A stretch of DNA of 64,000 bases from Haplodiscus bocki (Eukaryota). Each line of letters starts with the position of its first letter. Positions within the stretch are counted from its first letter, which is position 1. Location of the stretch: NCBI GenBank assembly GCA_965655095.1, contig OZ296648.1, forward strand, positions 123,008,001 through 123,072,000, in the 5' to 3' direction. The position numbers were made by a program, and so were the translations under genes. The notes beneath the pieces were generated by a model. It was given only the letters and a program-made list of their open reading frames with translations. It had not been told where the DNA came from and searched no databases. Positions 11,366-62,488 of the stretch are shown piece after piece.

Positions 11366-11399
11366 AAGATTACATTCAATTACTGTGCACAAAAACGGA

Positions 11400-17750: not shown

Positions 17751-17869
17751 TTTTTTTACTAATTTCTTGTCCAAACTCGATTTTGAGTTTTTCCTTGATC
17801 CTGTGGGGTGCAGATCAACAAACTTGAGGCCTATTTTGCAAAACACGAACAAGTGAGGGTAAACCACGC

Positions 17870-18420: not shown

Positions 18421-18429
18421 TTTTCAAAA

Positions 18430-19600
18430 TCTAACTGGGCTCGAAATTGAGTGAAGTCTCTGGTGTTTGAGAAACTGTTGTAGATTTGTTGGTATTGCTG
18501 TCAAATTTTGTAGAGTTTTTCTTTAATTCAGCCCCTTTCAGTGTTTCTATTGTTGATCCCAAGACCATCAACGTGTGGTGAGGGGAATTCTTTTCTTTGA
18601 AGACATTATTTGAAGGCTTCGAAAAACAATTAGGCATTAGTTCGATTTTCTACTGCTCTTCCCAAATCTGATATTTTCGGTCAATGAGTATTCAAACAGC
18701 CACCCTTCTGAATTTTTAGTCTTGCGGATTTTATTTGTATCAATAGTTTACTGCCATTGTAATTTTTTGCCTTCACAGTCATGTGTATATTAGATGTCGT
18801 CGGCTCGATAAAAAATTTAATTTTTTAAGAGATTTAACCCTGCTTCAAACTGTATGAGGACACTGCCCATTGCGTTTTAAAAAGATTTTGGTTTTGCTAG
18901 AATGTGTCAGATCTTTTCTTGAAGATTTTGTCAGTCTTCTCAAATCATAACTGATTGGCTCCATCGAAATCATACAATTTGCGGATTTAAGGTTTAACTG
19001 AAGAGGAGCAACTATATTAGGTTCCATTAAAATTGCACACTAACAAGCTCAATTTACTTTCTCGGCTGGTTTGGTTTTTTACTGTATGTTCTTTTTCATG
19101 CAATGCATCGCCAGTTCAAAATCAGACCCGGCGCATGATGGTAACTTCGGATCAAATGACCGTAAGTGGTTGCACTTTCTTCTGCTCTTAGTTGTCTTGT
19201 CATCAAATGAATTCCAAGTAACAACAGATACTGATTTCCACTGGAGACATTCTATTTTTTGGAGTTTATCCAAATGTTGATCTCTGACGACCACGATTGG
19301 TTTGAATGATATCTTTTGTTCGTCCAGCTTTTGAGAGAAAATGCGAAACATGATATTTGTTATGTCTGTGAAGAGAAATCGTAGGTCCACATAATCATAA
19401 CAGAAGCACATGAAACGAAATGTATCACACTCAATGCATCGGGTTATGATGCTTAGATTACTTTCAACTAGCTGCAGATTACCAAAGATACAATACCTAC
19501 ACAAGGTTTGACTTCTGTGATAGTGTTTTCTCGATTCTGAAAAACTAAAGTTGAAAACGGAAAACGGCACTATGAAAAACCAATTTCCGGCAAGAATCAC
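18430..19600 (-). mobile_element. Fragment of the env-bearing Gypsy family: env 3' end, LTR and ORF1 5' end
   Basis: Colinear homology to 32590-33650. The part 18430-19039 also matches 59400-60028. Confidence 0.7.
18758..19039 (-). repeat. Gypsy LTR (~280 bp)
   Basis: TGTAATTTT...AAAATTGCACA termini. Followed on the minus strand by TGGCAG (PBS-like). Homologous to 32908-33179 and 59758-60028. Confidence 0.6.
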
Positions 19601-23680: not shown

Positions 23681-23754
23681 AAAGCAATCGTTTCTGGAAA
23701 ATTCTTTAAAAAACTCTCTAACACTCACAATTGTAACTAATAACAAAAGTTACA

Positions 23755-24900
23755 ACATGAGCCGAGCGAACAAACGCTGTATTTGGGGATATATATGGGA
23801 GAAGAAAATTTTTCCATTGAATAGTTTAGAACTCTACATTTTAGAAAAGTAGTTTTGGGTAATTCTTGTTTTACCTCCACCAGACAAAATGAAATCTTTC
23901 TGCTAGTGAACTCATTGCATGAAGAAGAAGGGAATGAACAAAAAAATCACAATAAATATTACTTTTTCGGATGGTAGAGCACGGAGTTTTTCTTTTGATA
24001 CAAATAAAAACGATCCAGAAAGGAGTTACTTTTTCAAAAGTTCGTATAACTGTTTAGAAATGTGGCAAGAAGAAATGAAAACAAATATGTTTTTTCCATG
24101 TTACTACGAAAAATAGCTTACAAACTTTAAAAATTTCAAACGTTTCTTCAATCACAATGCTCCAAAGCATACCCAAAAATTGGGAATAGATATAGCTACT
24201 AGATACGGAAGTGAGGAAAAAACAACAGGCGAATATGGATTGGAAAAGCTGTATACAGCTTATCACATTTGCTTTGAAAATTTCCTCTAAAAAAGTCAAA
24301 ACGTTGAAAAGCTATGAAGTTTGGCCGTTAACTTAATCATGATGTACAAGATTTGTAGTTTTTATTGCAACCAGCTGTTGATGAAATCGAGTTTTTTTGA
24401 GGTTCTTAATTTTTGATCGCGAAACTATAAAGTACGAATCACTTCCAAGTGTAATTGAATTGAACGTCTTTGCCAAATAACCTAGGGCAGTCACTTGTTC
24501 GAACAATTGAAAAGTGTTCCGGAGGAAACAATTTAGAAAACACCTCAGGGAATACTTTTCACTTCCATTTGATTAAGTTTTTAGGCTGTGCTAAGAAAAC
24601 AATCCTCCTGGAAAGCATTCAGGTGGGAAACCTATTGAAACAACAAACCACAAAGTTTATAAAATAAGTGATTTCTCGGATGGATCAAATGCCAATAGCA
24701 CGCATAAGAGTATGTGTTTTTTCAACCTTACCCCTCCACCAGGTTCCAGAGTTTGTAAAGAAAATTCTTCCAATCTTTTTTCAAAAAAGTTAACACTGAA
24801 ACACTGGGTGATAATTATTTTTAAAAGGAAACTGATCACAAAAATTACGTTACCTTCCATGGGGAAATTTTAAAGTTCACAGTGAAGTTGATGAAAACAA
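23755..24900 (+). pseudogene. Minor capsid (penton-like) remnant
   Basis: DNA homology to 9830-10901 (ggaaagcattcaggtgg; gatggatc; ttcacagtga). Confidence 0.55.
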
Positions 24901-25019
24901 AAACTCAAAAACAAACTACCATAGTTATTCAAACAGAAAACAATGTGAATACTTTTGTATTAAAGTTTTTGCTTTAACTGGTTCATATAATGTAAACCAC
25001 TAGTCAAGACAAACTCAAA

Positions 25020-25400
25020 AGTGATTCTTTTTGCTTTAGAGGAAAGCAATAATCACCAAGAAATGAAATTGTTTCCGGCGCAACAACTGAAAAACCTGAC
25101 GAAAAAATTCTGTTTTTCAGTGGTGATTGTACTGTAGGCAAAAACTAAGATAATTTCAGATCATACAGGTGACGCTGAAAGATTTGATTTTTTCGCAAAT
25201 TTGGGAGACAGTGCGACTAAACAGCGAAGAACCTAGCCAATATGTTAAAAACAGCTAAAGTTCCCAGCGGACTGTTAGAATTGGCCACAGATATAACAAC
25301 TGCTGCTGCGAATAATAACTCTGAAGGTCAGGTTGCAACTCCTCCTTCTGTTGTAAATAACTGCATCATCGAAAAGCAATAATCCTCGGGAAATAGGATC
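25020..25400 (+). pseudogene. Protein VI-like amphipathic-helix protein remnant
   Basis: DAERFDFFANLGDSATK...PSGLLELATDITTAAANNNSEGQVATPPSVVN. Confidence 0.5.
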
Positions 25401-26419
25401 ATTTTAAACATTTATAGTGTACAAAATTAGAAAGATTTAAAAAACACTCTCTGTGAAAAATCCGTTACAAAAACAGGAAGACCTTGAAAAATTGACAGAA
25501 ATCAGAAGTCCAGCAAAAACTATCCGATCCGAAATTCAAAAGACGTGAGTGAAATCTTTCATACTGATGATCAAAAAGTGATCAAAACATCTATTTATCA
25601 GCAGAAGGAATCAAATGTGAAAATGGTAAAATCAAAAACAATTAGAGTTGAAATTTTAGGGGACGGCATTCGTCAAGGTTTGAGAAACTATGATGAAAAA
25701 ACCCAGAACTTTTGAAACTTTAGCTGACTTTGTCAACCTGATTTTGTCAGTGGACAGCAGTTTTGTGGAAACTGTGGAAGAACTTTTGACGTTAAGCAAA
25801 TGTAAGTTAATTTGGGTTAGTTCCTTTGGTTGAGAACAGATTTGAGATAAATGCAATTAACCCTCGAAAGGTTCTAAGATGAGGATCAAGTTGATTTCTG
25901 ATGATGGTGACAGCTATGATTTACTTCATCCACTTCTACCTCACTTTCTATCGGGGAAAACGTTTGCTAAAGATATGAACAAAGAGAGTGTATTTTTTAA
26001 ATTTTGTATGGTCGCGACCTGGGGTCTGTTTTTTGTTATAAAATTCGGACAGATATCATAACAATGGAGTGTTTCGAAGAAACACGGAGAATGAGAGCAG
26101 TTTTTTGAATTACAGGAAAGAATTTAGAAAAATATGAAACTCGTCTTCACTCCTGCTGATCCTAGTTATTTAGTCGCGGGCACTGAAAAAATGGGGTGTA
26201 AAGACTCGAATATTCTGATGCTGAGATTGCAGCCATAGTTTTTACATTTTCAGAATGAGATTGTTTTGAAAAAAGACCAACACCAGCGATTGCTCCGCAG
26301 CATCAATTCGAAAAAAAATGCCACAGTAGCGCAGACAAAATATCCTTTCGCTCCGAAGAAGAGATAATCTTTCTCAAAAGGGTCAATTAAAGTTTCTAAA
26401 ATTTTTTTTTGTGCTTTCG

Positions 26420-26950
26420 TTGCAATGCATTAATACTCTTCACCAACTAAACGACTAATCAAAAGAGAACTGATTTTTCTTCCCAGAATTTTTGACATGC
26501 ACATGTCTTTTTCTCGGCACTCATCAAATCCGGCTACATCATTAGGAAAATTCTGCATAATGTTAGCAGTGTGCTTAGAACAAGAAACCTGACTGTTATT
26601 TTTATCAAGAGTGGCACCCCAAAGACGTAGTGATAAAGAAGTTACATCACGAATGTAGATGCCTAACACGGGTGAAAAAAGGCGATATGTTTTTCAGGTT
26701 ATGGTCTACTTATCATCAAGTGCCAACATGCAATCTTGATTTTTCTCATTTTTGAATAATTCGTCTTTATATCATTATCAAGGTTCTGAATGGCAGCTCC
26801 AGTGAAAACTTCTTTTTTCTTCTATTTGGTTTGTTGAACTCACATGATAGATTTGAATTGATCACAAGACTTTTTCTGCCAAAGAAGCGGGCATTGAATG
26901 TCAAGTCAATCTCAAGAGTCTCATTTCTGTTGATTTTTCGATTAACATTC
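26420..26950 (-). pseudogene. Packaging ATPase remnant
   Basis: Decayed Walker A (LTFNARFFGRKSLV), Walker-B-like MLALDD, then NISPFFTRVRH, and NDVAGFD in ORF 26430-26669. Confidence 0.65.
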
Positions 26951-27199
26951 ATTTCGTGAAGGTTTCCGGTACTCGCTTTCTGAATTGCGTTCTCGTTTTG
27001 CAATATCGCCTAGGTTATAGTTATTGACGGATTCTCAGCAGCCTCCAGTTGCCACTCTGCCTTTCAGACAACTTTTACCTCTAATATGACCTTCTTCATT
27101 GGATAAAGAATATCACAATCAAGGTTTTTTTACATTCTGAACATTTTTTCATTTTGAATCAAGAAAAAGAATATGGTCGCGATCAGAAATAATGTTTTA

Positions 27200-28330
27200 C
27201 AGATTTTGAATATTCATAGTGCTAAAGCTAGACACTTATTAAGATCGAAACGAACCGCACTCTAAACATCAAACGCAGTAACTGGTTGAGCTCCCATATG
27301 TTTGCTTTGATTATTGTAATCAAACACAGAAAAGCTTTATATACTCTTGAAGGAAATCGAGTCTTTGATTAGCTAGTATACCCTATGTGCAGAGTGTATG
27401 AAAAAAAATTCTTCTCTCCATAAAATGCTCCGTGAGAGGTAATCATTAGCTAATGAAATGAAACAAAGTTACCAAGATGTGGATCTTATCCCGGTCTACA
27501 AGTATCTGTTGATACAGTTATCCAATATAAATTATAGTCGTCGGTTGTTCTTAAATCAATTTTTTCATGATGCAGAAACCGTATCGAAACGCAGGGTGGG
27601 AAACTGTTCGGCTTTTTATGCCTAAATCGAAAATCCAATTACCACTAACATTTAGTCTTTTGCCAAAAATAGTACGTTCTCCGTATAATACGTGTTGGAG
27701 ATCTTGATAGCTTTTGATCTTCAGAAAGTTGATCTGCTTCAAGACGTGTTATAAAACTTTCAAAGCAGCAGGAAATTTCTTGGAAACTTACATCTGCTGC
27801 TGCTGCAGTTCCTAAAATGACAACGTTGATACCGTTAAGTTTTGAAGTAGTTTGATATCTTAATTCAAATGTTAATTTGGTCAGCAGAACCAAAGACATT
27901 AGAAAATCGTTATTTTTTATGAAACGTTCCTCTATGGTTTGTTTCTTTTTTTTCGATAATTCTTTAATTCTTTTTCGCATATCTTTTTCAAATTGCTTTT
28001 GAAGCATGTATAGCAGCAGTTGATGTCATAAGTTTGTCCCTTAAAGATACCGGATGAAATTTTCAATTTTCTCAAGAAAGTTATTGAAAGCGGTGGCACG
28101 TTTTTGCTTCGCTATGAAAAAAACCACCGGAGCAAACATACCTAGGAAAGATCATGACCGTTAGCAAAAAACGTGGAAGCAGCATCATTTTCTGATACTG
28201 AAAATTCGAGAAAAATATAACTACTCTGTGGGTAGATGTCCCTCCAGGCAAAAAATTTGTTTCATTGCTACTGTTTCGGTTATTTATTGTGGCCAAAATT
28301 AGTTTGAGAACATCAAAAAAGACTGATTTG
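27200..28330 (-). pseudogene. Major capsid protein remnant
   Basis: QKLSRSPT and YGERTIFGKRLNVSGNWIFDLG (ORFs 27645-28007 and 27551-27742), plus SVFDYNNQSKHMGAQPV near 27300. These resemble the recalled adintovirus MCP (ILSKTPTEL.YVERSVF.K.V...NLW.FELG; YVFDIRYQ....SQPI). Confidence 0.65.
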
Positions 28331-28499
28331 TCAAGCTCGCTGCAAAGATTTTTGCTTTTTTTTCAAATAAATTTCCTTTTTCAATACGAGAATTTTCTTG
28401 TTTTTTGAAAAAACAGAAAAAAAGTTTAATATCTCCCCTTGTGCTTATTTTAAAATTCAGACACAGCAGTGAACGACTCCTAGCCTACTTGATATGTTT

Positions 28500-31400
28500 T
28501 GGCAACTTCTTGTTTGTTCTGAAACATCTTTTTTAAAATGAAGTGCATTATTTCAAAGGCGTAAGTTTTTCTAAAACTTATTTCTCTTTCCTTCGAATTT
28601 CAAATGCCGTTTTAAAAGTAATTGCTACATTGCAACAACTCCTGCTGTTATTGGTACTATACTGTGTTCAAATCCGGTTAGATTAGGTGTTACTGATGTA
28701 CCTGTCGATTCGATAAAAAAGAAAGTGAGTTGTGCTCATAAAGATATCTACTTTTAGTGTAGTTCTTCAAATTTCTTAATTTCACCTTCATTTTAAATTC
28801 AAAGCGGATTAATTTTGTTCATTGAATTTTCGAAACCAAAAACTTCAGTTACTTTCGAATTACAAATTCCACCTCTTTTGAGAATCAGTCTCAAAAACCT
28901 GGTTAACTGTTTCACTCATTTAATCTTCCAGTAATTTCAATTTTTTTGAAACTCTTTCTGTGTTCTTCGTCAACTTATGCATTTCCTCTCCAGCTTTTTG
29001 CATTTTGTTTGACCCTTGTTTGCTATTTTTCCCGGGTTTTGACAATGAAGAACTGACAAAAAACGAACATATTCTCGTGTTTTAATTTCCTAAGCATGCT
29101 TTTTCAAAGGATGTTCATCATTTAAATTTAATGAACGTTCGGAAACTCGATTTTTAGTTAGAAAACAATCAATTCTTCCATTCTAAATAACAATTTTCTT
29201 ATAACCCTCTCGGTTTCATAAATGGACCAAGATTGGTCTGTAGCGTTGTCGACAGAACCGCGACTGGCGCTGGTATCTGGTTTTAGCTACAGATATGTTA
29301 CTGTCGCAGCAATGTTTATTAAAATAACATCTTCGTCGGAATACTCGAGACTCGTTGTAAAAAAATTCAATTTAGAATAATTTATTTTCATCTTTTTCCA
29401 TTTTTTTCTGCTTTGTATGCGCTAACTTCGGTCGACTTTTTTGGTTTTTTTTCAAACCCTCAATCAATCTTGTTTGTAACGTTTCTTCTGTATAAACAAA
29501 CGTCGGCTGAATTATAATTATAGCTTTCTCCTTGATACGAAACATTTTTCTCGCCCAAATTTCCTGATGCAACTTCCATTCTTTGAATAGGAGAATGCAC
29601 TTTTTATTTATCTTATAACTCTTCCAACGTTTTCTGCTCTCGCTTCTGGCATTCATTTTCCCTCATAGTCTCTATTCTTCTTTTTTATTTAGTCTTTTTT
29701 AGCAGAAAATTTTCCAGTAGTAGCTGGCATTACATTTAAAGCGTTCCTGATGGCTGACACTATTGATGAGGAATCTTCTCCCATTTAAGCATCTGTTATT
29801 AAAAATTGAAAATTGTAATCTTTCAAAGTTGGTATTGTGTCTTCTTCTACCAACTTATCAACGGATGCACAGACTAATGCTGACTCCAAAAGTAAATAAA
29901 ATATTAGATTTCTGTTGATAAATTTATCTGAGTAGTACCGGTCAAAGATTTTCAAGAACTTCGGGGTAGAGTTTTTAGAGATCCATTGTACGTCGACGGG
30001 CCACTTTTTACTTATTATTGGTCCCAAAAAGCTTTGGGAGTTCTTCAAAAAATCACTTTTGCTTTGCTAGTAGTTTTTCTAAAACTATGTGTACTACTTA
30101 GGTTGACCATATTCCTAACCTTTCAAAAACTCTTTCTCTTTTGAATCAGGCCAACTCATTTCTTTCACTGTTCCTTTTCGCGGTAATTTAGAATTATTTG
30201 CCTGTAGTTCAAAATCCATGATATTTTATCCGTTCCATTCTGCCGTAGCAAGAAATTACTATCTAGATAAGATGCTTTGTGGAATATTTAGGAACGAAAA
30301 TTGAAATTCGATTGAACTTTCAACAATATAAAAGAGAAAAACTGTTTTTAGCTACCAATTTTCGAAATATTTTTCATTTATAATGTTGTCATAGGTTTCA
30401 ATACAAATTTGAAGTATGTTTGTTTTAATGTTAACCTAAAACAATGAATTTTTAAATTTTTGCAAAGTTCGAAACTAATGCACAAAATCACATTTTTTTC
30501 CTTAAAATGCAATTATTGCATGGGTAATTTTTATACAAACAAGCAACAAAAAGTCATAAAAATTAGAAGTGAAATTTTTAACTCCTTGAGAATCATGCAC
30601 AGTATGTAAGACGATTATTTTTCAATCAAAAGCAAAGAAAAAACGGAGTTTTGATTTAGATCAATCTTACATTTCATAATGGTTTATTACAAATGACGGT
30701 TTTTTGACTGGTTCATATCACCGTAAACGTCTACGCAGCTTCGATTCTTGATAAAACACCCCAAATGGGTCAGTAAAGTTTTGACCTTCAAATTTCTTGT
30801 ATCTTATAATAATTCCCGTGATTTTAGAAAGATTGAAAACAATCTTTTGGGTTCCATATAAGATATGAACAAATCGGGCAATACTTTTCAATTCTATACT
30901 TACTTCACTTAAAGTAGATCTGATGAAAATTAGGTTTTTTTGCAGTTTCTCATTTTTCAGTTCCCAATCCAAAAAAAACTTTTGTTTTAAATGCGGAGTG
31001 ATTTCGTCAATTTAAAAAATTTGCCACGAAAGTCTTCCACCCTATGGTCAACGTGTTTTTCGATAATACTGTTTTTTTCGTCAAACTGTTGAACAAATTT
31101 TTTATCAAAGTTTAGGCTTAAAATAACCAGGTTGTAAGTTACACTTTAATGGAAAAAGTAAAAGGGTTTTTTTTGTTTTCAAAGCTTTCCTTTACAGAAG
31201 AGTTTTTTGCGAACTTCTTGGATTTGCTGCTTTTTTGAAAAAATTTGCCTAAATTATATTTCTGCGGATCATTTAGTTCAAAAAAGAAATCAATATTACC
31301 CCTGACCGTTCTTTAAAAAGGCTGACCATCTGGGTCAAGCGTCTCGTACAGTTACGGTAATTTATCCTACTTTAGATTACATACGTTTTATTCAATTTTT

Positions 31401-31750
31401 TTCACCAACTTATAACAAAAATAACACTTTTTGTGTGACTAATAAGTTGTGTTACTGAAACATTCACTCCAAACAACGCAAAATTGACTGTCTATGAGAC
31501 TTTCAATTAGTTTGCCAACCCCCAGCAAATTTCTCAATCACTGCATGTCAAACTATTTGCGATACACTGTTTCACAAAAACTCATTACAACTACAAATAC
31601 ATACACAATTCACTGTTCAAAATCAACCTCATCCACTTCTTCGTCCTCGATCATACGGGCAAGGGGTCCAGGAGATAGGTAAACACTTTTGCAAAGCAGA
31701 TGAAAGAGGCGTAAATCACGCATTTTAGCTGACTTCATAAGAGAGTTTTT
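28500..31750 (-). pseudogene. Protein-primed DNA polymerase B remnant
   Basis: Colinear DNA homology with 14500-17750. ORF fragments 29372-29656, 29785-30048 and 30718-30972 fall at the matching positions. Confidence 0.55.
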
Positions 31751-32009
31751 CTTGTAGTTTTTTTGTTTGGACTCGATTTCTACTTTTCTAAATTTTTTTG
31801 CGAGGAGAGGGCTCAGCGGATATAAGTCAACTATCGCAAATCAGTAAACATAGGCCTATATTGCAAAATATAGCCAATTTATTATGACAATGTTTTTTTT
31901 TGTTGTGGCTTAATTTGTACGCTTTTGCTTGATTCTGCGGGTTGCGGGCCAGTGGATTTTGAACCAATTTTGAAAAAACTAGTAATTGTAAGGCTGAATC
32001 ATGCATTTT

Positions 32010-32580
32010 ATATGATTTTATATGACGAAGTAGAGATGTGATTCATTGCAGAAATGGAACATTTTCATGCTTTTCGGGTGATTTGAGTGGTTGGAAAGTA
32101 GAGGCAGAAATGCATATCTTCACACTTACAGTTTCCACGTTTAGGGCCGTTTATCGGAAGAGTGCTGAACGATAGTGAGATTTTCTACAACTTTACAAAT
32201 TGACCGTTAATGGCAGATAATCGAAAGTTCAAAATTAAAGGAATATAGGTTTCTGAAGTTTATGGTGGATAATTGAACTGCAGATGTTCGAAAACTTCTA
32301 GATGTTCCGGGAACACAGATTGAAAAAATTAGTAATTCGGCGGAAAAACGGGGACGAGAGATTGATGAGCAAGAAGCAAAATATTTGAACTCAAAAGACT
32401 GCCTTTATTCAGCCGACTGCTTTAATTGCTTCCCTAAATGTGTAGTCAGCTGAAGTTAGGAATTTAATTTGTTTCAGCTGAAGTTAGGATTTTAATTTGT
32501 TTTATTTGTTTACAATTCGACGCATCAAATCTCTCGGAAAAAAATCAAGAGTTGCAGCTTTAGTATCGAAATTTTAAAAA
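32010..32580. repeat. Unclassified interspersed repeat (partner of 17870-18420), with a local 28-bp tandem duplication at 32446-32501
   Basis: DNA homology to 17870-18420. The unit tcagctgaagttagga(a/t)tttaatttgtt occurs twice. Confidence 0.55.
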
Positions 32581-32907
32581 ACAATTACAAACTTCACTTG
32601 AAACCTAGTGAATTGCCGAATTTTCCAGAAATTGTTGTGGAGTTGTTACTACCACTGTAAAAATTTGGATGTGTTTTCCTTCAATTCAGTTTTTGAGTAA
32701 GTCTTTTTTTAACCTAAAGACTTCAATGCGTGGTGGAAGAAACAATGTTCTTTGAAGAAGTTGTTTGGAGACTTCAAACAACAATAAAGCAACGGTCTGA
32801 TTTTCTACTGCCCTTCTCAAATGCTCATTCGATGAGTATTCAAAAAACAACTTTTTGAAAAACTTTTGTCACGCGTGAGTTCCTGTTAATAACTTACTTA
32901 CTGCCAA

Positions 32908-33179
32908 TACAGTGGCAATCATGCGGATTTTAAGAGTCATCTTCTCAGCAAAAGGTTTAACAGCTTAGAAACTGCAATATCGCTTCGTATTGGTTAAGAG
33001 TTTTGCTCGATCCGTTCCGGAATTGACTTTGTTGTTGCTAATATAAACCAAAATTGTTCATGAAGATGTTCTAGTTCCTGTCTGTCAATTAGGTTTAACT
33101 CCAACTATTTCATGCATTTTTTGGATCTAAAGTTTGATTAGGCAAGAGCAAGTCTTGTAGGTTCCATTAAAACAATACA
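32908..33179 (-). repeat. Gypsy 3' LTR
   Basis: Ends ...gttccattaaaacaataca. Homology with 59758-60028 stops at this point. Confidence 0.6.
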
Positions 33180-33397
33180 CTGACCGGCTTCAATTTATTT
33201 TTCCCCCGCTTGTTTTGTTTGTTACTGTATGTTCTTTATACAATGACATGACAGTTTACTTTTACAACCGTGCTTTTGTCGGCTCAAATGGGCGTAAGGG
33301 GTGCAATTTTTCCCGCTTTTGTTTATGTTTCTCTTGTCAATAGGTGCGATTCAGGTAACAGCAGAGTCTGGTTTGGCCACTGAAAACCTTTAGCGTC

Positions 33398-35690
33398 TTA
33401 AAGTCGATCTAAAAGTTGATCTGCGACTACCATGAGTGGTTTTGGTGGAACTTCTTTTTGGTCCGGCTGGTGGAAGGGAAAGAGAAACTCAAGAATTTTT
33501 TTGTATCTGTGGGAACACCAAACATAATTTTTAGATAAAGGGCTTTGCGGAGGAGAAATACCACTATCCCAATAAGCAGATGGCGCTTCCACGATAGGTA
33601 GTAATTGAATACTTTCTCCAAGTATAGTTTTACAACTGTGAATTTGTGCGCAAAGCGTTTGGCTATCTGTTGTATTTTCTTCACAAACATGGTTGACTAG
33701 TACTTGTAATTTCAATCTTATTGAGCTCACCTTTTCCATGTTTGCTTCAACTTCAGTATTGTCGTAGGGCAGTTTCTCAATTGTTGGTGGTAGTCCGAAT
33801 AAAATCACCATTGTGACTGGCAGTTCGACATCCATTTCAATTTGTAGTCTTTGCAAACACGACGATAGGTCTGAGCGAATTCTAATGTCGTTTCCACCAC
33901 TAGGAAGTGTGGCCAAGCATCTTTTCCATCCTGGCTTTCATTTGCAAATGCGATTGTTGTTACAGTCATATATGTTTCTTTGAAATCAAGGTTTGCTCCT
34001 GCCAAGATGATTAGCCATATTCCACAACCCAGTTTTAATGACTCCTTTTCAAAAAAAGGGGTAGGGTTCAGTTTCTCAAACTTTCAAAGCAACCAATTGT
34101 CCACCAGAACTCGGTGTTGACAAACATGATCAGTCCAAGTTTTCAGCTGCTATTTTTCCGTTACATATTAATACTTACTCGAATCAATACATTTTCCAGT
34201 TGGTCACGAATTACTGGTGACGTTTTTATCAGGTCTTCTGAGGCTGCCAACTCTTCTTTTTCAATTTTCTTTTACATAGCTATGTCTCCTTCGACTTGAG
34301 GTAAAGGTACCACTTCAGTTCTGTACGCAGGGAATGCCGGGCGCCTTGAAACGAATGGGATAGTTATTGTCTTGAGCAGTCCCTCCTTGAGTGTCAGAAT
34401 ATCCAACAAAAGTCCTGATTCACAAATAATAAAAGTCCTTCTTTGGGAACAGTCAACAGAGGCAGTTCTCCGATTTCTCTTTTTCGTCATCTACCAGTTC
34501 AAGAATTGTTTTAAGGTATTCCTTAGGAAGAACTGTCAAAGGAAGAAACTGCGATAGTGGGGGCAGAAGAGAGTCCATTGTGTTCTTTGGGAAGGCAAAC
34601 AATACTGGTTTGTAAAACTGCAGATGAGTGAGAAGGGAGGGGATATGGTCTCAAAAAAAATACTTACTTGTTATCTTGCATTTGAGAGTTAATCGCAGTT
34701 CCCCATTTCCTGGAAAATTTCTTTGAATACGTCGAATTGATTCTCAATTTTTCCTCTGTTTCCTATGTGTGCTTCCATTATCTGGTTTTGGTTGTTATGA
34801 TAGGTTGCAATATCTTTAGCTACTTGGACGAACATTTGCTCTGTTGAGTCTGCCAAATTTTGTGGTTTGTCTCCTAGTGTTATGACATGCTCACCCAGTT
34901 TTTCAACGTTTGTTTCATTTGCTTGGGCCTTTTTTTAGCAGGAGTCAAAAATTATTTTGTTCCACAGTCGTCTGATGCACTAAAGATTTTTCCGGGACTA
35001 AATAAGGTACTGTGCCCACTGATCCAGCTGCTATGGGTGGTGCTATTCTACTTATTGCTGTTTTAATTCATCTTGAACGAATACACCGCGTTTTCGGTTC
35101 TCCTGTTCTTGAGGGAAGTAATGTTTCCCTCAAGGAGCTTGAGCTATGCAAACGTTTGTAGGGCCCGGAAAATCATTTTTAGATTGGTGACTAATTTATG
35201 GAAAAAGCAACATATGTTTTTCATTTTCAAACGGTGCAGTTTTTAGTATCTATATTGTGAATTACTTTTGAAGATATTTTTTGAGTTGAGGTTTTTCAAG
35301 TAGCTTCTTCTAAGTTTTCCACTAATTCTTCAAACGCTTTCATGAAAAAGCAGTCATCTTTCACGGTTCTATAGACGTTGTACAGTTTCTCAAAGGTATT
35401 TGATGGGTTCCGTACCATTGTCAATTTGCGTAACATAGGGATTCGTTTGTGATCCGTATACTACCATTCTGAACGATGAACAGCATCCTCATCGTTGGAG
35501 CTGAAATATTCGTCTGAATACTGTTTGTTTGTGATCCGGGATGTCCATTGTAACAATTTATGAATGTCACTTGTATCGGTACGCGAAAGACATTGACTCT
35601 GAATTGGTTACCCTCTGTTAATATTTGGCCAAAGGTTTTGCTGACTCGTTGCATCATCAGAGTGTTCTTGGGAATAATCTCCAACCACTC
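33398..35690 (-). pseudogene. Envelope / class I fusion glycoprotein-like gene remnant
   Basis: Fusion-peptide-like SR|IAPPIAAGSVGT (~35010-35055); long heptad-like AQANETNVEKLGEHVITL...QFDVFKEIFQEMGNCD (~34693-34928); Cys-containing ectodomain fragments; hydrophobic LLIGIVVFLLRKALYLKIMFGV near the C-terminus; located just before the 3' LTR. Confidence 0.6.
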
Positions 35691-36654
35691 AGTCTAATAT
35701 TAAGTTTTTATGGAGTAAATTATGAAACATGGTCTGCTTGTTAGAACCAACAATTGGTTTCCGTTGAAAAGTTTTTTTCGAAAGGAAAACATTCAAATTA
35801 GTAGTTGCCGTTTTTTTCTTTTTCCTGAAATTTTTTCTGACGCGCTGAGGTCAAGTCTGCGGAGCCCTGGGCGTCTAGTAAAACGCATGTAGCGGTTGTC
35901 ACAGCGGTGTAAAAGCCGTATGCGGCAGGTCCAAACCCCACTCGTGACCTCTTTTTTACGTTTTTTCAGATACTCGTTAGCGAGATCTCCCTGTAAACAA
36001 TAAAAAAGAAGTTTTTTTTGACAAAAATTTAAGGTTTTATGTTGAATGGGCTTTTTCCTCAAAAAATACCCCCTTTTAACTGGAACATTCTGTTCCTTTG
36101 CAATATTTTCCAAAAATTTGAGAAAAGCTTCGATTGTTCCTAAGAGACCAAAAATTTATCAATAAGCTATAAGTCTGTTAAAATGTCTGTTAAAATCCAA
36201 ACACAAAATTAAACGAGTCCACAACTTTTTCAATTTTTTTTGTATATTTTTCAAAATCCTAGTTTATCCAGATGCAAAAAATGCATCTGTTCTTTCGAAA
36301 ATACGTTGACTCCATCATATCGTTCCGTGATATCGACATTGAGACAATGACAAAACGCTCGATTAGTATTGATTTTGAATATCGGACTGTCAGTAATCCA
36401 ATGCAACGAGCAAAGTCAACAAATTTTGAATAGAGATTCTTTTTACAACCTAAAGGTTTCTCATCGAGAACCTAATAGAAAAAAACGTAGTTTATAGCTG
36501 TGGATGACGAAAAGAGATGAGTTTGACTACCGAGAAATGTTATTTTCAAGAGGTTTGTTCGGAAAGTTCGGACTTTCAGGATTCTGATGCACAGAACAAA
36601 ATCAACAATTTTTCTCCTCAATACTCCAGTACAAGTCTTATGTTTTACATTGGG

Positions 36655-37153
36655 TTCTTGATGGATTAAATATATTTTCTATTGGCTAAGGAGAACAAGT
36701 TTGAACTATGTGCGAATTGCTAAAATTACCACTTTTCGATTTCTCGGACTGTCAAGATTCTGATGCAATGAACATTCTTCAATCAAGATTTCAATCAAAA
36801 ATTCAAAAATACAGCACTTGTAGACGAGTATTTGATTGAAAATCTGTTAGTTTTTTTCCTTTGCTTGAGAATCCAGATAGTCTGAAGTATCCGAAAAAAC
36901 CGTTCAATGTTAGTTCCTCTCCGTATTCAAAATCAAAATTGAGGAAAACAGCGACCTTCAGTTCTTCCGTTGGGGTTGGCGTTGAAAAGTTTCTAGTTGT
37001 AAAGATTTTTGTGATAGGATAAGTGCCGATTTGTGTTCATTGCATCAGAATCTTGACAGTCCGAGAAATCGAAAAGTGGTAAATTTTGCAATTCGCACAT
37101 AGTTCAAACTTGTTTCCCTTAGCCAATAGAAAATCCATTTAATCCATCAAGAA
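36655..37153. repeat. ~120-bp near-perfect inverted repeat (arms 36655-36774 and 37034-37153)
   Basis: ttcttgatggattaaat...ctgatgcaatgaaca is the reverse complement of tgttcattgcatcag...atttaatccatcaagaa, with few mismatches. Confidence 0.9.
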
Positions 37154-52200: not shown

Positions 52201-54299
52201 AAGTTTAGCGCATGTTGTAGTTTTAACTGTAGTTTGAATCGAATCTATCGATTTTCTCCCACGGCTATCCTGTTTGTTCTGACTGGTTTTTCCTTTATAT
52301 ATCTCGCTGTTGGTGTTTCAGGTTTTGTGAAGAAAATAGTCTAGTTATAGTGATGCGTCGGAAATGTGGGATGGAAGTGAGCCCGTGTTCAGTCAAGGAA
52401 GCATCCGAAGGTAATGGCGTAGCTCTTGCAGCGGATGATACCTGCTCAAACAGTGGAAAAGCTTTACTTAAGATCGCCTTCTTCAGTATGTCCGATGAAG
52501 AAGTCGTGCATTCTTTCAGATTATGGGTTGAGCGGAAAATGGACAAACCATTTCCGTAAACCGAAATTTCTGGGTTGCTTCCCGTTAGTGAAAATAGAGA
52601 GGATGTTTGCCCGTGGCTCAAAAATGCTGTTGTTCTTTTTGAATTTGTACCTTACATGGTTTTTTTTGGTTGGTGACGGTAAATAAAGCGCAGAGGTGCA
52701 CCGTGACACTGATCCACTTAGCCCAATCATTTCATCTCTACTGCGTGGTCGTAAGATATGATTGGTTTCCCCGAATTTTCTTTCTACAGCATCTAAGCTC
52801 GGGCACGACGTTCTCAAAAGTCAGTTGAACCAATTCTTCGAAAAACTGAAAAATCGTTGGTATTCTGATATACCTTTTTGTTTTCAGTACGCTGGCGATA
52901 CTGCCTGTTTCCTTGCGTTAACTGGTCACTTTGTCCCATCCATGACAAGTCTAATGAGTGGCGGGTGGTTTTAACGCATACTGTCAAGTTGGAAGATAAC
53001 GTTGCTCCGGCACGAGAGACTAGAGATCCCAGTAATAACTAGGCACAGGCTGATGATGCACGTGTTCACGGTGGCAATGTTCAAAAGAAATCAGGCGTAA
53101 ACAAGAAGAAAATTGGGGCAGGGAAAAAGAGGACAAATTTGGCAGAATAGATTCAATTTTTCTGGTTTTTTTGAGTAATTTCCCTTGCCATTTTTTGCAG
53201 ATCGAGCGGCACACTTTATACACCGTTCTTTTGAGCCATCTGAACAAGTAAACTTCAATGTTAGACTATAAAGCGTAGGGCTGGTTCTGCATTCAGTCGA
53301 CATGGCAGAGTGTGTGCAACGGACTATCTGAGAAAAATCAGAGGTCAGATGAAACGCGTTGAGAGGTACGTTAGAGTTTAGTACTGCAATATAAACCACT
53401 CTATTGCATTTGGCTTGTTTTTTTTCACGTCCCGTGGTATGTTTTGTCGATTTGAAAAAAGTTGAAGCGCTCAAGATGGCAGAATTACGCTGTTTCTGGT
53501 AGCTTGTAATTACAATTTTGATGTCGTTGTTGTTTGTGGGGTTTTCAGGCGTACTGAACTACTTTCAAGCAAGCAGCAAGCGTTAATCTTCCCCTAAAAA
53601 CATTTTGTTTCGGTACTTGTTTTTTTCTCTTTCAAGGTGCCAAATTTTCGGAATTAGCGAGTCGGTACGAATGTTAGTTGCATTTAAGACCAAATATGCT
53701 TGGTTTACGGCCTATCCGAGAAGTTCGTTTCTTCGAAATTTTCAATCCTCGAGTTTTTAGGTGTTTTTTTTGTGCAAAGTCTGTGAAGAACTTGAAAGCT
53801 TTGTGTTGAAGTCGACCCACAGGTTTGTTACTTCTAGTTCCCAGTACTCTCTATCTTTTCTGTTCATTCTGGCTCTGAGGCAATTTTCCTGGTAGTGTGT
53901 TAGATTGAGGGGAATTGAAGCACACAGTTACTGAAACAATCGGTGGGTCAAAAACTTCTTTAAGGTTTTGTTTTAAAGTCTGCCATTGAAGTTTGTCTAT
54001 TCTGCATCCTTTTTCCGATGTTCTAATGTGTTTGACTCGAAGATCTTCCGCGTAATGCGTATCTTGATGTTCTTTTTCTTTCTCTCTTCATCTCTCTCTT
54101 CCAAAAATGTTGTCAGTGGATCAACTGTTCCTAATGTTGTTGGTGAGGGCATGCCTCCAAACAATATAGACACACGAAGTGGGTTGTCGAATCTTGCGGA
54201 TTAAATTTGTGTGGAATTTTTGTCTTTGGCTAGTGATGAGTCTTTTGTCGAATTATTCTTGTCCTCCTCGAAATTGTATTAAACTTGTGTGTATTTGAA

Positions 54300-57200
54300 A
54301 GTTTTCCAGGTTGGTACCTTCAATATCTTCATCGTGGTTGAGTCGTTTCATTGGGCGTAATCTGGTTCGGTATAACTTTGGCGTGCAGTGTGTGCCAACT
54401 TTCGAATTTACATAGTTTGCGTCCATGAGACTTTCCCGATATGCACAAGCCTAGCCATGATTTGAAAAGTTTCGGACTAAATTTTGATTTTTCCGTCATT
54501 TTGGGTTTAGTATTAGGCAATAAGAAAGTGGTTTGAGTTTGTTTGATCGTGACTTTCGTTCATGGTGTCGTCGATTTTTTTGAAGCAGTTCGCTAGCGTT
54601 TCTTTGGCGTTTGGAAATTTTTTCAACATTTCATCACCGTGATTTGACCAAATTTTAGTTTAGGCTTGAGTTTTGAATACAGTTGCTAGGACAACGATAT
54701 TCTTGCGGTTGTTTTGGGTCTATTCCACGGAAAAGGATCATTGGGGACATCCGATAAATACATGTTATGATGTGCAGTGTAAAAGTGCTGTAAAGTTGAG
54801 GTATTTATATCAGTTTAAGAACGACTGATTGCTGTTGAGTTTCAAAATCAATGTCAATGCAGCATATGCCTTTTTTACGACACGCATCGTTTGTGGATAT
54901 TTGAATGATGCATGAGATTTTTCGAACTACAAAAAGTGGTAAGTTCCCTGAAAAAACTGACACAACCTGACTTCACAAATCAGATTGTTTTTCTTGAGGT
55001 ATGTAGCTATGTTGGAACGCAACTGAGTTCAAGGCTGTTGCTAGACAAGGTGCAATTTTTGTTGTTAGCGGTACTGCGGAAAGGTTTTTACTGAGAACAT
55101 CTATGGCTGTGAGTGCGTGCAGGTAAGGTGAAGATAGGAATGGTTTCAAAATGTCAGTTTGGTTTAGCTCTCCAGGGAATATCGTGGTTGGTGATGCTTC
55201 GTTCAAGGGTGTTTGCCACCATGATGTTTGAACTAGTTTCATTCGTAAGCAGGTTTAACGGTTACGTATGTAGTCAGCCATCATTTCGAATGAGTTGGGA
55301 CAGAATCATTTCGGGATTTCTGCTTTTGTTCTTGTGCTTCCCAAGCGTCCTCCCGTTGATTAAAGTAAGCAACAGAAATTTCTTTCATCATGTGTTTGAG
55401 GACATATACTTGGTTGCACGAGGTCATTTTGTCATGACCACAGCATTTTGGCCAGAGATTCCAATTTTTTGGTAGGAAAAGCCGTGATAGTTGTCTGAGA
55501 TGTTTCTGTTCATCTCTAGTTGAGTAATTTGTTGGGGGTGCATTTCGTAAATATATGCATTTTGTGACCTTCGACATTGGTTGGTCTGAAATTTACTATT
55601 TCCCCAGTTTTGCATTGGAGGTTTCTACTTCAGGATAGATGTCTTTTAGGTTTGGATGTCTCGTATGGCATTGTTTTCACGTGATTCCACTGTTTATGTG
55701 ACAATTTGTTTTTCGCGTTGTGATATCAGATTTAGTATTTGTTGTACTGCTTGTGGGTAATTACCAAACTGTTTAAATGTTATCTATGTGGTGATTTCTA
55801 TCGTTTGCGGAAGGTCTTTTGGTCAATCTTGTGCAAACAGTTCGCTGTTTGTGCTGTCTGGAAGCTTAGCACTTGCGTCTTTTTCTTTCTTCTTCAGGGA
55901 TTCTATCGGTCAGTTTGAGTTCATTTTTTTATGTTCAATTGTAAAGGAGATAAGAAGCCTGCTGACGCCCTGGCTTTTCCCGGTAAATGCGCTGCCTTTA
56001 TTTCAAAAGCTACTTGGTCAACGTATTTCCAAAGTGATGTAGAAATTGTTTTCGCATGCAAAAATTTTGTTTGATTTTTGATGTCAGTTGGTATCAGCAC
56101 TAGCTTTTGAATTCCCCATTTGAAAAAAAAACCCGGAGCAAAATATATAGAGGATTTCTTCACAATCAATTGACTTCTTTCGTTGAGCTGTCGAATGTTT
56201 TGGATCCCAAGGAGACTGGCGCTTAGGTTTTAGCGCTTTCTCCTTTGTCATTCTTCACGTAATCTTCAGTGAGAAGTACAAATCCCCTCAAAAGATAGCT
56301 AGCATCACATGAGATTTACTTTTTGACTTCCTGTTTTTGACAGTCAGATTGGTACTTTCGTTGTCAGGTTCAATTTACGTTTGAGGCTTCCAAAAGCATT
56401 CTGTTTTTAATCAGTTATTTCAAATTAGAGGTTTCCCGCAAAAGTCTATGTGATGGGATGAGGTGTTCATTCAGAAGCTTCGGGAAAATTGTGGGAACCC
56501 GGAAGTTTTTTTCAGTTGTTTCACTGATTCGGGTGTTCTTAGAGTTTCAGAAATTTTTCCATTTCTGGTTGTAGACCTTTATCGGTTGTGACATTGCCAA
56601 CGAAGCGAAATTGTTCCGATCCAACAACAAATTTTTCGGGTGATAACATGAGTCCTGATCAGCGAAGGCATGTGAAATTGTCTGAGGTTCGGTAAGAAAT
56701 GGTCTACAGATTCCATTGCACATGCAATATCGTCTATGAATTGTGTGCAGAAGCTGGCTGATAAGCATTGTTTTTGGTAATCTCCCATAAATCAACCGAA
56801 TCCTGTAACTGATCTGGTCCCACTTCTTGCTAGTACTTGGTATTGTTCGAGATGCAAAATTAAAGGCAGAGATTTGTACTGACAGTGGTTCGGCCATTTG
56901 GACAGAAAGATAAGTTTGTGAACAATCAGCGTTTCAGAAAAATGTGAATTACCTGCAAAAAGCAGCGTCGTCTCTGCCATTGTTGAAATAGCAGACTGGT
57001 AATGTGGTAGTCACGTAAAAGCAAGTTGTTTATTCTTTATAAGTCCACCAAAATACGGAATTCTTCATTTGATTTGCAGTGTGCAAAAAAGGGCTACAGT
57101 ACTTTTAACGGTTGAGGCTTCTAATGACAGCAACAAATTGTAGCAGTGCAAGTTCAACTTGTAGTTCCTAACGTAGAAGAATTGGTCTTGCGGGGGTTTG

Positions 57201-58330
57201 GATATATCTTCGTTGACTCTGTTCTCGCCTGAGTTTCAATTCGAATTCTGAGTTGTACCCAATGTCCAATCTACAATTTGCACTAAGATTCGACAATTCA
57301 GTTAGCCAGTCTGCTACTGGTTGTTTGTTTTTACGGGTTAGAAGGGGTATCTCCCAGTTGAATCGCTAGAGAAAAGTGTGAAGTTGTCTTGTGAGTTATT
57401 GTTATTCAATTCCTGGCGTTCCAAAAGTTCCGTGAACTTTTTTTCTACACTTTTCAGAGTAATAGGGTTTTGTACGTCTCGTGAGTTTGAAAATACAATT
57501 TGTTGTAATCGGGTTCCGGTCGTGGTGGTTGGGAATCTGAATTAGGTTTTCCGTCAGAAACAAGTAGTTTGGTTTCTTTCGATTTCTTCTAGTAAGTTGA
57601 ATTTGGCTAGTTTTAAAATTGAGAGTCTATTGGGGTTTGTATTTGTGCTAGCCGGGGCGAAAAAATTTTGAGGACATCAACATCGGAATTGCGTGGAGTT
57701 GTCATTTTGTTGTTCTGGAGATTCATGGCCGATGTATCTTCAAGTTGCTTCCCAAGTCTGATTTGGAAAAAGATGTAACACACAAATCTAGTTTCTCTGC
57801 GAAACCTTTTTTGGGTTCCATAATTCCACATCTTCCGTGAAAATTGTATTTCTTGGGGGTAGGTGAAACTTCAATGTTGTCTGCCGATTCGGGACAATGA
57901 TAACTTTTTCCGTTGTTTTGTCCAAGTAACGTCAACTTACTCAGGGTCTCATGCCTTTTTACATTGATTGGAGGGTGAAGTCTGTAGTTTCATTATGTTT
58001 CCGTTCGGGTAAAATTGGATTGAGTTACTTTTAAGGAGCGCGTTTCCCAAAATTAAATTAATTCTTTGGAGGTACTAGAAACTGGTCCTAAAAAAGTTGT
58101 TTACTATTGGCAATACAAGTTGGGTCAGGCGATGCAGTGGTATAAGTTGCGCTCAAGCTAATTTGACTTTGCGGACCTCGGAAGGGGTGAGTGTAGCATC
58201 CATGCCGCATGAGAGACTTAGTTCTTCGTAACCTTTATCACTCATTGTGTTAGCACATGCACCTGTGTCAATCAAAGCTTTTGTATTGTCTATTGGAAAA
58301 CTCCAAAGGAACATAGACGATTTATCATTC
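54300..58330 (-). pseudogene. Gypsy pol (PR-RT-RNase H-IN), decayed
   Basis: Protease ALIDTGACAN (~58255-58285); RT SVQISAFNFASRT and TQFIDDIA (~56730); RNase H APVSLGSKTF, TDIK and AHLPGKARASAGFLS; integrase ORF 54973-55242. Confidence 0.9.
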
Positions 58331-58385
58331 GAGATACATTCGCTTTAGTGTTTTAAGTGTAATTCGTGCTTCCACTGTTTTTTGT

Positions 58386-59640
58386 TTATACAGGCGTTAG
58401 CTCTACTTGTTTGTTTTGGGGCTGTCTGGTATGGCATTTGATAACTTCGGCTCGTTGGTCTACGTTGGTTGCAATCTCTAGCATGGTCTTTTGGTTAGCG
58501 TCAAATGAAAAACTTGCTTGGAGTACGTTGTTTGTGCTATATGCCCTTGGTTTGCTGATTCTTGAGTTTGTGCCCCGGTATAGTTGCTGGTTCGTTGTTA
58601 CGGCTGTTGTAGCCTTGGTTGTATCCCTTGTTGTTGTTGAAGCTACATCGTCCTCTGTTGTTGAGGTTTCCATGTCCCGAAACTTCGTGGATTATTGAAT
58701 CGGTAGTTAGGTCTTTGCTGGTTTTCGGGTGGGTCTCTGGTAGCTTTGGTGTTGATTTGTAAAGTTTTTTTAGTATGACAAGTCCGTTTGTTGTGACATT
58801 ACTTCGTCCTGTTGCTAGTTTCGTCTGCGCACCTACTAAGTTTCCAGAGTGCTGAACAAACCTCATGAAAAACATCTCTGGTCCATTCAACACCTGGGCA
58901 ATATTCATAGAACACCATGTGGCGTCTAGCAATTGTAAACACAAGTTGTACTGTCACTCCTTCGTTCTGGTCCAACAGTTTACTTTTGAAGTTCGGCATT
59001 GCATTGGTGAGGATTTCATTTCTTTCGTTCAATAATTGTATTCTGTGACGTAGGTTGGTTTGTTTTTTTGTACTCTCGTTTTCTGCTTGTTCACTTGGTG
59101 TTAGCTGGTGGAATTGGTGGGAAGGTTAGGTCATGGTGAAAATGTTTTATTTTCAACTTGTACTAAGAGGTCTTCTGGGTTTCCGTTGTTGTCGGATTCT
59201 GGAGTCGTAGTTTGTGTATTTCTGGCAGGTTAGGGTTGAAATAGTGGTTCCTTTGTGCCATAATTGCTGCGTCAATGTTGTCTTGTGTTAGTCTTCTGAA
59301 GTTGTTGAGCTTGGTCCAGCAAGTGAAAGTGAAGGAACTGTGGTTGGTTGTTGGTTGGCATTTGGGTTACTGTCGACGTTGAACTTTTTAATAGGCTTTC
59401 GAAAATTAGCCAAATTTCATGATTTTCAGCGGAATGGATTGTTTTTTGGTTTTTCTGCTGCCATTGCTTGATTGTTATCCTCATGTTCTCCTTGTCACCG
59501 TGTAAAATTTTGTAGATGTCTTCCTTTAATTCAGTTCTCTTGAGTGATTCTGTTTAGCCCAAAACCTTCAGTTGGTGGTGTGATGAATTATTTTCTATGA
59601 AGATATTATCTGAAGATTTGGAACAACCATTCGGCAACAG
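58386..59640 (-). pseudogene. Gypsy ORF1/gag region, decayed
   Basis: Lies between the 5' LTR and the protease. Contains low-complexity N/R/G-rich fragments (NNRGRCSFNNNKGYNQGYNSR). Confidence 0.5.
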
Positions 59641-59757
59641 TCCGATTTTCTTGTGTCCCTCTCATCTCATACTTTCGTTGAATGATTATTCAAAATATCA
59701 CCTCATTAAATTTTTTGTCATGCGGAAATTATTGTTAATCAAATGTTTTACTGGCAA

Positions 59758-60028
59758 AATAATTTTTTTGTGTTCGCTTGCGGATATTAAATGTCGCCGG
59801 CTGAATAAAATGTTCGTTACTTTAATAAATTGAATAGTGCTTCGTATTGTTTGAGGATATTGCCCATTGCGTTCCGGAAGTGATTGTTATTGCTAATATC
59901 TGTCCAAATTATGATTTCTTAGCTCCTTCCAAATAAAAAGGGGTTGGCTCCATCTACTTCATGCATTTTTCGGATTGAAAGTTTGGTTGAAAATGAGCAA
60001 TTATGTTAAGTTCCATTAAAATATTACG
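59758..60028 (-). repeat. Gypsy 5' LTR
   Basis: Homologous to 32908-33179 and 18758-19039 (cgttccggaa, gctaatat, catgcattttt, gttccattaaaa). Confidence 0.6.
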
Positions 60029-61540: not shown

Positions 61541-62488
61541 TCAGGTTGCATCGAAAAATGACGAGTTTTTGATCTCCAAGTACAAATTGAAGAGGACGTG
61601 TAAAGATTGCAATCGATTGGGCTTCCCATTTTTTTCGTGAACAGGAATATCGAGCATAGTGCATAGCAAATCAATGTACGTTTCTAGATCGCAGTCCAAA
61701 TCGGCGTTGCATATAGAATCTTCGCCTCCCAGTTCTTGCATTCCAGCTTCGAAATCTTCCGGCCACTCGCGCATCAACAAGTCAACGTCAGGCATCGCTT
61801 TCGTGTAATGGACAGACTGACTGGGAAGCGAAGTAGTCAAGTCAGACATCTGGTTTAACCAGCTTTCCAAGTCTTTCACGCCTTTAGAATCTTTATGCAA
61901 ATTTGGGATTTTCTGAACAATGTTTTCTCGTTGTTTCTTTAACTTAGAGAAAGCTTGCAGTCTGTGATGTAAAACCGAAGGGTCACTTTGGTTAGCCACA
62001 GGTTCGTCAAGTACTGTCAACCCAAGGTTGTCTGGCAGTCCGTCAGGTCTTGGTATTTTCAAGAAAGCGTCAATGTCGCCAACTGCAGGAATGAAATCAG
62101 GAATGAACGGCTTCAGTCTATATTCCAAGTCAAGACTCTGCGGGGTGTATTTAGTTATGTAGCGAAATATCTCTTTCACTTCATTGTCGACCTTTAGGTG
62201 CTCGTACTCTGCAGGGTCATAAGCTCCTTCAGGGGCATCGTCGTCTTCGTCATCGTCACTGCTGTCCTCTTCGTCGTCTTCATCGTCATTGGCATCGTCC
62301 GCGTTCGGAGGTCGTTTAGCCAGAACTGGTTTAGATGAACGACTTTCCGTCGCTGCGCTGGATGGTTTGTTGGTTGAACCTGGCTTAGTCAAGTACTCGG
62401 AAGTATCTTCCTCACTCAAATCGTCGTCTCGGTTCATCGCTGAGGGGTTCGGTTTCAGAGGCGCAACTTCTGTTGGAATAGAATACAT
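61541..62488 (-). CDS. IFT46: Intraflagellar transport protein 46 homolog (IFT-B complex), 315 aa, uninterrupted ORF
   Basis: Acidic N-terminus, then EGAYDPAEYEHL..EIFRYITKYTPQ..LKPFIPDFIPAVGDIDAFLKIPRPDG..NLGLTVLDEP..QSDPSVL, VHYTKAMPDVDLLMREW and RLQSLHVLFNLYLEIKNS. These are hallmark IFT46 sequences. Confidence 0.97.
   Translation of the reverse strand: MYSIPTEVAPLKPNPSAMNRDDDLSEEDTSEYLTKPGSTNKPSSAATESRSSKPVLAKRPPNADDANDDEDDEEDSSDDDEDDDAPEGAYDPAEYEHLKVDNEVKEIFRYITKYTPQSLDLEYRLKPFIPDFIPAVGDIDAFLKIPRPDGLPDNLGLTVLDEPVANQSDPSVLHHRLQAFSKLKKQRENIVQKIPNLHKDSKGVKDLESWLNQMSDLTTSLPSQSVHYTKAMPDVDLLMREWPEDFEAGMQELGGEDSICNADLDCDLETYIDLLCTMLDIPVHEKNGKPNRLQSLHVLFNLYLEIKNSSFFDAT

Follow-up and report, generated by a model that had tools for sequence, protein, structure and literature searches.

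An env-bearing Ty3/Gypsy retrotransposon family of Haplodiscus bocki with an antisense JmjC-like gene and a Macro domain between integrase and envelope

Results

Organization of the element

The DNA analysed here is a 64,000-nucleotide stretch from Haplodiscus bocki (GCA_965655095.1, contig OZ296648.1, positions 123,008,001 to 123,072,000 of the forward strand; the window), in which an old, dead copy of an envelope (env)-bearing Ty3/Gypsy long terminal repeat (LTR) retrotransposon occupies 32656-60028 on the minus strand (Table 1). The family to which it belongs carries a Macro domain and an antisense JmjC gene between pol and env. The copy spans 27,373 bp in the order LTR-gag-protease (PR)-reverse transcriptase (RT)-RNase H (RH)-integrase (IN)-env-LTR; gag, pol and env were mapped by tblastn with natural relatives taken from the same 1.5-Gb genome (G000). 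The first-pass annotation, made from the letters alone, had read this one-stranded architecture, a triplication and a collapsed length of 13-14 kb, all of which are borne out: the genes lie in that order, and the length is 14,164 bp after collapsing the triplication (12,259 bp when an inserted repeat is also removed), full-length relatives measuring 12.8 and 15.7 kb. Its proposed start at 32908 falls in the middle of an LTR; the true start is 32656.

The window pol genes follow the order PR-RT-RH-IN, as Ty3/Gypsy requires, and the pol of the relatives L010 and L007 contains Pfam RVT_1 and RT_RNaseH. No open frame across the element region exceeds 179 codons. The two window LTRs are 67% identical (Kimura two-parameter distance (K2P) 0.44), and the LTR pair of L017 is 92.7% identical; LTR length among the relatives is 430-550 bp. 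A primer-binding site (PBS) of the TGGTGACA type follows the 5' LTR in 5/6 relative LTR pairs. Exact 5-bp target-site duplications flank four of the six pairs and one further pair has a duplication with a mismatch; none remains around the window copy. The LTRs of subfamily B, one of the two subfamilies (A and B) described below, end in TAGA, not CA, yet are bounded by exact 5-bp target duplications (L009/L010, L012/L013 and L019/L020), and the subfamily B element at L008-L010 is embedded in a 117/234-bp satellite array.

Table 1. Coordinates of the element and of associated features in the window.
Feature	Position	Strand	Basis or remark
Third LTR copy with env tail	18499..19348	-	env tail 57%; missed by the first-pass annotation
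3' LTR	32656..33179	-	524 bp; matches L017 LTR pair
env remnant, predicted F-type	33326..35176	-	N-terminal deletion, frameshifts and stops; profile A1 independent E-values (iE) 1e-34 and 4e-21
High-copy interspersed repeat, later insertion in JmjC-env spacer	35753..37657	.	genome matches
Antisense JmjC-like remnant, copy U1	39124..39929	+	profile A2 iE 2e-20
IN remnant, copy U1	41062..42491	-	tblastn with relatives
High-copy interspersed repeat, junction copy	42619..44265	.	repeat comparison
Antisense JmjC-like remnant, copy U2	45738..46537	+	profile A2 iE 2e-15
IN remnant, copy U2	47782..49094	-	tblastn with relatives
High-copy interspersed repeat, junction copy	49222..50866	.	repeat comparison
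Antisense JmjC-like remnant, copy U3	52341..53135	+	profile A2 iE 9e-19; HxD, K and H kept
TARG1-like Macro domain, partial remnant, copy U3	53786..54063	-	DNA match to L033/L034/L021/L030 Macro region; 33/140 residues aligned
IN remnant, copy U3	54229..55655	-	tblastn with relatives; Pfam rve E 0.0096
RH remnant	55906..56433	-	same L010/L007 pol match as RT
RT remnant	56474..57377	-	33-38% to L010/L007 pol (RT and RH together)
PR (aspartic protease) remnant	57985..58281	-	46% to L007 PR; Pfam gag-asp_proteas E 0.08
gag remnant	58540..59300	-	frameshifts and stops; tblastn, 38-43% to L017 and L010 gag
Decayed PBS	59490..59500	-	single mismatch to TGGTGACA-type PBS
5' LTR	59501..60028	-	528 bp, TTTTACA end; ~70% to 5' LTR of L017

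The JmjC gene of the pol-env spacer

The pol-env spacer of the family is 3-4.5 kb long and contains the Macro domain and the antisense JmjC gene, remnants of which occur in each repeat unit of the window and had been overlooked in the first pass. The JmjC open reading frame (ORF) occupies the opposite strand in the interval that separates Macro from env, with 270 codons in subfamily A and 350-400 in subfamily B, and frames of 270-408 codons stay open on this otherwise non-coding strand in both subfamilies. At least 152 matches to subfamily A and at least 151 to subfamily B were found in G000, where scoring stopped at 150 candidates for each. An env tail lies downstream on the opposite strand within 8 kb at 42/60 top A loci and 24/60 top B loci (chance 0.0007), counted with an env list that held 141 of the 143 matches; among 20 fetched JmjC loci without an env match of that kind, 15 have env, 18 have Macro or IN and one has neither. 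Trees of 15 shared rows (unrooted, with short internal branches) have 9/12 splits in common between JmjC and IN, and 6/12 between IN and env; the JmjC gene co-descends with the integrase. A third, decayed JmjC-like lineage is dispersed as 1-kb pieces (L069-L072, around 4700-5700); neither pol nor env lies within 5 kb of these.

Distant JmjC homologues are present in other data sets (87 matches; P0165 is at most 39% identical to this genome). The contigs of three DNA runs cover the env and pol parts, and run X5 (organism B) covers the JmjC part little, an observation that carries no weight as evidence. The viral and metagenome contigs searched gave no relatives of the element. A lower-bound search for a host donor gene found none: five host JmjC matches were returned, the best at 7e-5 against the element profile. 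A longer, fused JmjC form was likewise not found, in a weak test.

The JmjC gene evolves under purifying selection. The ratio of nonsynonymous to synonymous substitution rates (dN/dS) is below 1 in 13 of the 14 unsaturated pairs (45 pairs in all, 31 of them saturated) and falls to 0.25-0.28 in six pairs at dS ~0.55, all six lying on one branch; the neutral control, the window triplicates, gives 0.92-1.26. The iron- and cofactor-binding set HxD/E, K and H forms the most conserved JmjC columns across subfamilies that are only ~15% identical. In an alignment of 21 JmjC sequences one H is invariant, and K and the second H are kept in at least 90%; the HxD/K/H set is retained in 10/15 aligned subfamily A rows, and subfamily B has HxE instead of HxD, with a GH[VI]E motif in 10/10 B loci.

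Pfam JmjC scores above its cut-off in 2/4 close and 7/24 distant homologues. Profile A3, which combines 21 sequences and includes distant homologues from other data sets, matches C. elegans KDM7 (1.1e-9) and PHF8 (4e-6), then KDM7A and PHF2, with JMJD6 (1e-3) and KDM2A (0.04) further down. The protein resembles KDM7, PHF8 and PHF2 (PDB 3n9l, 3k3n, 3kv9 and 3ptr) in the HxD..K..H core over ~140 profile positions; unlike them, it is a stand-alone protein of 270-400 residues with a basic C-terminal tail and no PHD finger. As it lacks an N-terminal PHD finger we do not file it as a KDM7 member; it would at best work like KDM7.

The Macro domain

In the relatives the Macro domain is located at the end of pol, after IN, and shows sequence homology to human TARG1 (E 9e-23). 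It resembles human TARG1/OARD1 (PDB 2lgr and 4j5r; E ~1e-22) as a Macro domain and differs in its position at the pol end behind the integrase; the window keeps a fragment only, 28-33 of 140 residues per unit.

The envelope gene

The first-pass annotation placed env at 33398-35690. An env remnant is indeed present there, and the fusion-peptide-like stretch, heptad region, cysteines and hydrophobic C-terminal segment noted in it all align with relatives; its upper end is not upheld, as env begins at 35176 and 35177-35690 matches a non-coding leader in relatives. The DNA alignment shows that the window env has lost ~250 bp of its N-terminal subunit, which 4/4 relatives retain, and no clear furin site is kept in this copy. 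Its last frame has at least 143 matches in the genome (best 150 of 476 candidates scored). In other copies env is linked to pol, and the signal peptide, cleavage site, fusion peptide and transmembrane segment are found in relatives, as the earlier reading required: all three natural env frames have a transmembrane segment and a fusion peptide behind a basic site, which is a furin site RxK/RR in two of them and RxxR in the third, and the hydrophobic N-terminus is detected by hydropathy in two frames and by eye in the third.

The origin of the fusogen, left unclear before, can be assigned from profiles and a predicted structure. A search for env homologues found 87, and all three tested (P0011, P0029 and P0082) score above the Pfam Baculo_F cut-off (25.8-29.6 versus 24.1 bits); four env frames of the own genome that were scanned gave no Pfam match. 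A monomer model of a natural copy (L006), predicted from an alignment of 73 sequences (pLDDT 74), has fold matches to the F proteins of RSV, Nipah and Hendra viruses (E 5e-8) and of mumps virus, with Z ~10 over ~400 residues, and to baculovirus F in a viral structure library (E 3e-19); the earlier suggestion to compare env with baculovirus and paramyxovirus F thus gave matches to both. TM-scores to F proteins range only from 0.2 to 0.4, a low level that a flexible monomer would be expected to give. The profile and model evidence identifies env as an F-type class I fusogen, and the family may once have been infectious. In the viral library, baculovirus F shares first place for the L006 model with an uncharacterised protein of abalone herpesvirus (A0A145VUZ2, E 1e-19). 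Influenza HA2 was considered as a relative and rejected: the profile matches are weak (best E 0.008), are confined to the fusion-peptide region and amount to a motif-level likeness. PDB searches that used single env or JmjC sequences returned nothing useful. At L002:4774-9149, two 400-bp repeats (99% identical) enclose an env frame of 739 codons in a 4.4-kb unit that lacks pol, possibly an env-only non-autonomous element.

Triplication and other rearrangements

The window copy contains three tandem units (U1-U3) of ~6.6 kb each, 86.9-89.8% identical (K2P 0.11-0.14); comparison with the K2P of the LTRs makes the triplication ~3-4 times younger than the insertion. Stop codons at six query positions and one frame change are common to all three units, which means that the element had died before it was triplicated; five comparisons between the units give dN/dS values of 0.92-1.26. 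The triplication arose at the DNA level, by genomic duplication of an element already dead. That it belongs to the biology of the element or is an assembly error is hardly credible in spite of the three near-complete tandem units, since the shared lesions and a dN/dS of ~1 speak against the former, as does the lack of this arrangement in every fetched relative within its stretch, and unit copies that differ by 10-13% are not collapsed or duplicated reads.

Every junction of the triplication falls within the high-copy repeat, which may have driven the amplification. The death of this copy would have been followed by insertion of the repeat upstream of env, and by tandem triplication of the JmjC-Macro-IN segment. 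A first look for the inserted repeat in G000 gave 1735 and 1827 candidates, of which 40 were scored in each case; internally the repeat contains inverted segments, and elsewhere it is arranged in 2-kb tandem arrays (G000 C7:13.53-13.59 Mb).

An old direct duplication (8284-19303 versus 22200-33442, ~64%) copied the env tail, the 3' LTR and ~11 kb of flank, and is roughly of the same age as the element insertion. An 11-kb giant LTR was considered for this match and rejected: the LTRs of the relatives are of the ordinary length given above, and the match is a local flank duplication, for which no long match was found elsewhere.

Other features of the window and related loci

IFT46 is present as a single open frame at 61541-62488 (minus strand; Pfam IFT46_B_C E 1e-79), ~1.5 kb from the 5' LTR, and degenerate A/C-rich tandem repeats lie at 1578-2363 and 6964-8231. 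At L003:1619-3436 (minus strand), a 606-codon ORF with a weak Endonuclease_7 match (E 0.001) adjoins a 567-codon ORF without a Pfam match.

Discussion

Proposed role of the JmjC and Macro genes

The main silencing of retroelements in animals is repressive histone methylation. Purifying selection and a fixed position in the element indicate that the JmjC gene is very probably functional for the element, and its product is probably catalytic. We propose that this product is a histone demethylase that counters host silencing, an assignment drawn from sequence and analogy to which we give slightly less than an even chance; it is based on the basic tail and on the removal of H3K9me2 and H3K27me2 by KDM7 enzymes, as described for KDM7A in the sections available of PMC11905110 and PMC10558696. 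The full interpretation, in which an animal lineage resembling endogenous retroviruses encodes an antisense KDM7-type demethylase and an ADP-ribose eraser that clear repressive chromatin from proviruses, is given a probability of about 0.4.

Such families are known to replicate by means of gag-pol and to fuse membranes by means of a furin-cleaved F protein. In the proposed sequence of events, gag-pol would build the particle and integrate the cDNA, and furin-cleaved env would fuse membranes and allow cell-to-cell spread. The JmjC protein would be translated from an antisense transcript of its own, and its basic C-terminal tail would direct it to the nucleus, where this putative iron/2-oxoglutarate enzyme would strip H3K9me2/H3K27me2-type marks and thereby counter host silencing, while the Macro domain would take off ADP-ribose.

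Several observations weigh against this interpretation. JmjC is undetectable at two loci, L001 and L027, that carry pol, Macro and env; four distant JmjC-like pieces are situated away from any pol or env context; and the JmjC and env trees (the same 15 unrooted rows) have only 4/12 splits in common. The catalytic triad is lost or truncated in 5/15 aligned copies, a single pair has a dN/dS of 1.86 (confidence interval 0.98-4.27), the six best-measured pairs belong to a single branch, and saturation affects 31 of the 45 pairs. The KDM7 match depends on profile A3, since a search with the close-family profile A2 alone recovers none of the solved structures at E <=1. The model predicted for JmjC is of poor quality (pLDDT 39.7), and a fold search with it gave no match at Z >=5 and is uninformative. 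No PHD or CXXC reader domain was detected in any element JmjC ORF scanned, which leaves targeting unexplained.

The strongest alternative is an active dioxygenase with a non-histone target, such as a host defence protein, an RNA or a protein of the element, in the manner of JMJD6. The match to JMJD6, the absence of a chromatin-reader domain from the ORFs, a basic tail that could bind RNA and an orchid Gypsy element with an RNA-demethylating 2-oxoglutarate enzyme (PMC9289625, consulted in part) would all suit it; KDM7/PHF8, however, score six orders of magnitude better and over a longer alignment, and we regard this alternative as unlikely. Still less probable is a non-catalytic protein, a decoy or binder blocking heterochromatin factors like fission-yeast Epe1. 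Anti-silencing by a JmjC protein without enzymatic activity is reported in the accessible part of PMC7192584, and the strong divergence from cellular JmjC proteins and the HxE of subfamily B point the same way, but between subfamilies so far apart no columns are better conserved than those of the metal and cofactor residues, and GH[VI]E is kept at every subfamily B locus inspected. A passenger fragment without function for the element, which the env-bearing relatives lacking JmjC and the stray decayed pieces elsewhere in the genome might suggest, is very improbable, being largely refuted by dN/dS against the neutral control and opposed by the constant position and orientation and by the long open frames on the non-coding strand of both subfamilies.

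Comparison with known elements

The env-bearing Gypsy architecture is already known, and the JmjC and Macro cargo is the unusual part of the family. Ty3/Gypsy 'errantiviruses' with F-type env are widespread in invertebrates and occur across metazoans (Chary and Hayashi, PMC13524379). As far as that source is available, they share with the present family the gag-pol-env order, LTRs, PBS and multi-copy young relatives, as well as an F-type env with signal peptide, furin site, fusion peptide and transmembrane segment; the present family differs in its long IN-env spacer with Macro and antisense JmjC. In the available text and seven supplements of PMC13524379 'JmjC' and 'antisense' do not occur, and 'macro' is absent from the text and, at the four of its 10 places in the supplements that were inspected, is part of a species name.

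The Oikopleura Tor elements (PMC4402516), likened here by description from the accessible text, are also invertebrate LTR elements with a furin-cleaved glycoprotein env, a pol-env spacer and internal promoters, and differ in that 'Jmj' and 'macro' do not occur in that text. LTR elements of bdelloid rotifers (PMC5408684) have an env resembling paramyxovirus F and, behind pol, ORFs for captured enzymes, but these are a GDSL esterase and a DEDDy exonuclease, and 'Jmj', 'macro' and 'demethylase' have no occurrence in the part of the article at hand. The nearest precedent for a JmjC cargo, judging from the available portion of PMC9289625, is the orchid Ty3/Gypsy element, in which an extra ORF for a 2-oxoglutarate/iron dioxygenase is proposed to counter host marks. 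It differs in its plant host and in its recently captured AlkB-type demethylase of N6-methyladenosine, which acts on RNA, whereas the cargo described here is a JmjC gene, old and common to divergent env-bearing subfamilies. No published report of a JmjC cargo in such elements was found in a search that lay outside subscription papers and Repbase; term searches of the accessible parts of PMC13524379, PMC6431247, PMC2836005, PMC5408684 and PMC4402516 were likewise negative.

How retroelements persist under silencing is an open question, for which a selected JmjC enzyme is a direct counter-defence candidate. With a JmjC protein and a TARG1-like domain, these elements would resemble complex retroviruses with accessory enzymes directed against two host marking systems. 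If this is true, the family would represent a retroelement-borne enzymatic anti-silencing system.

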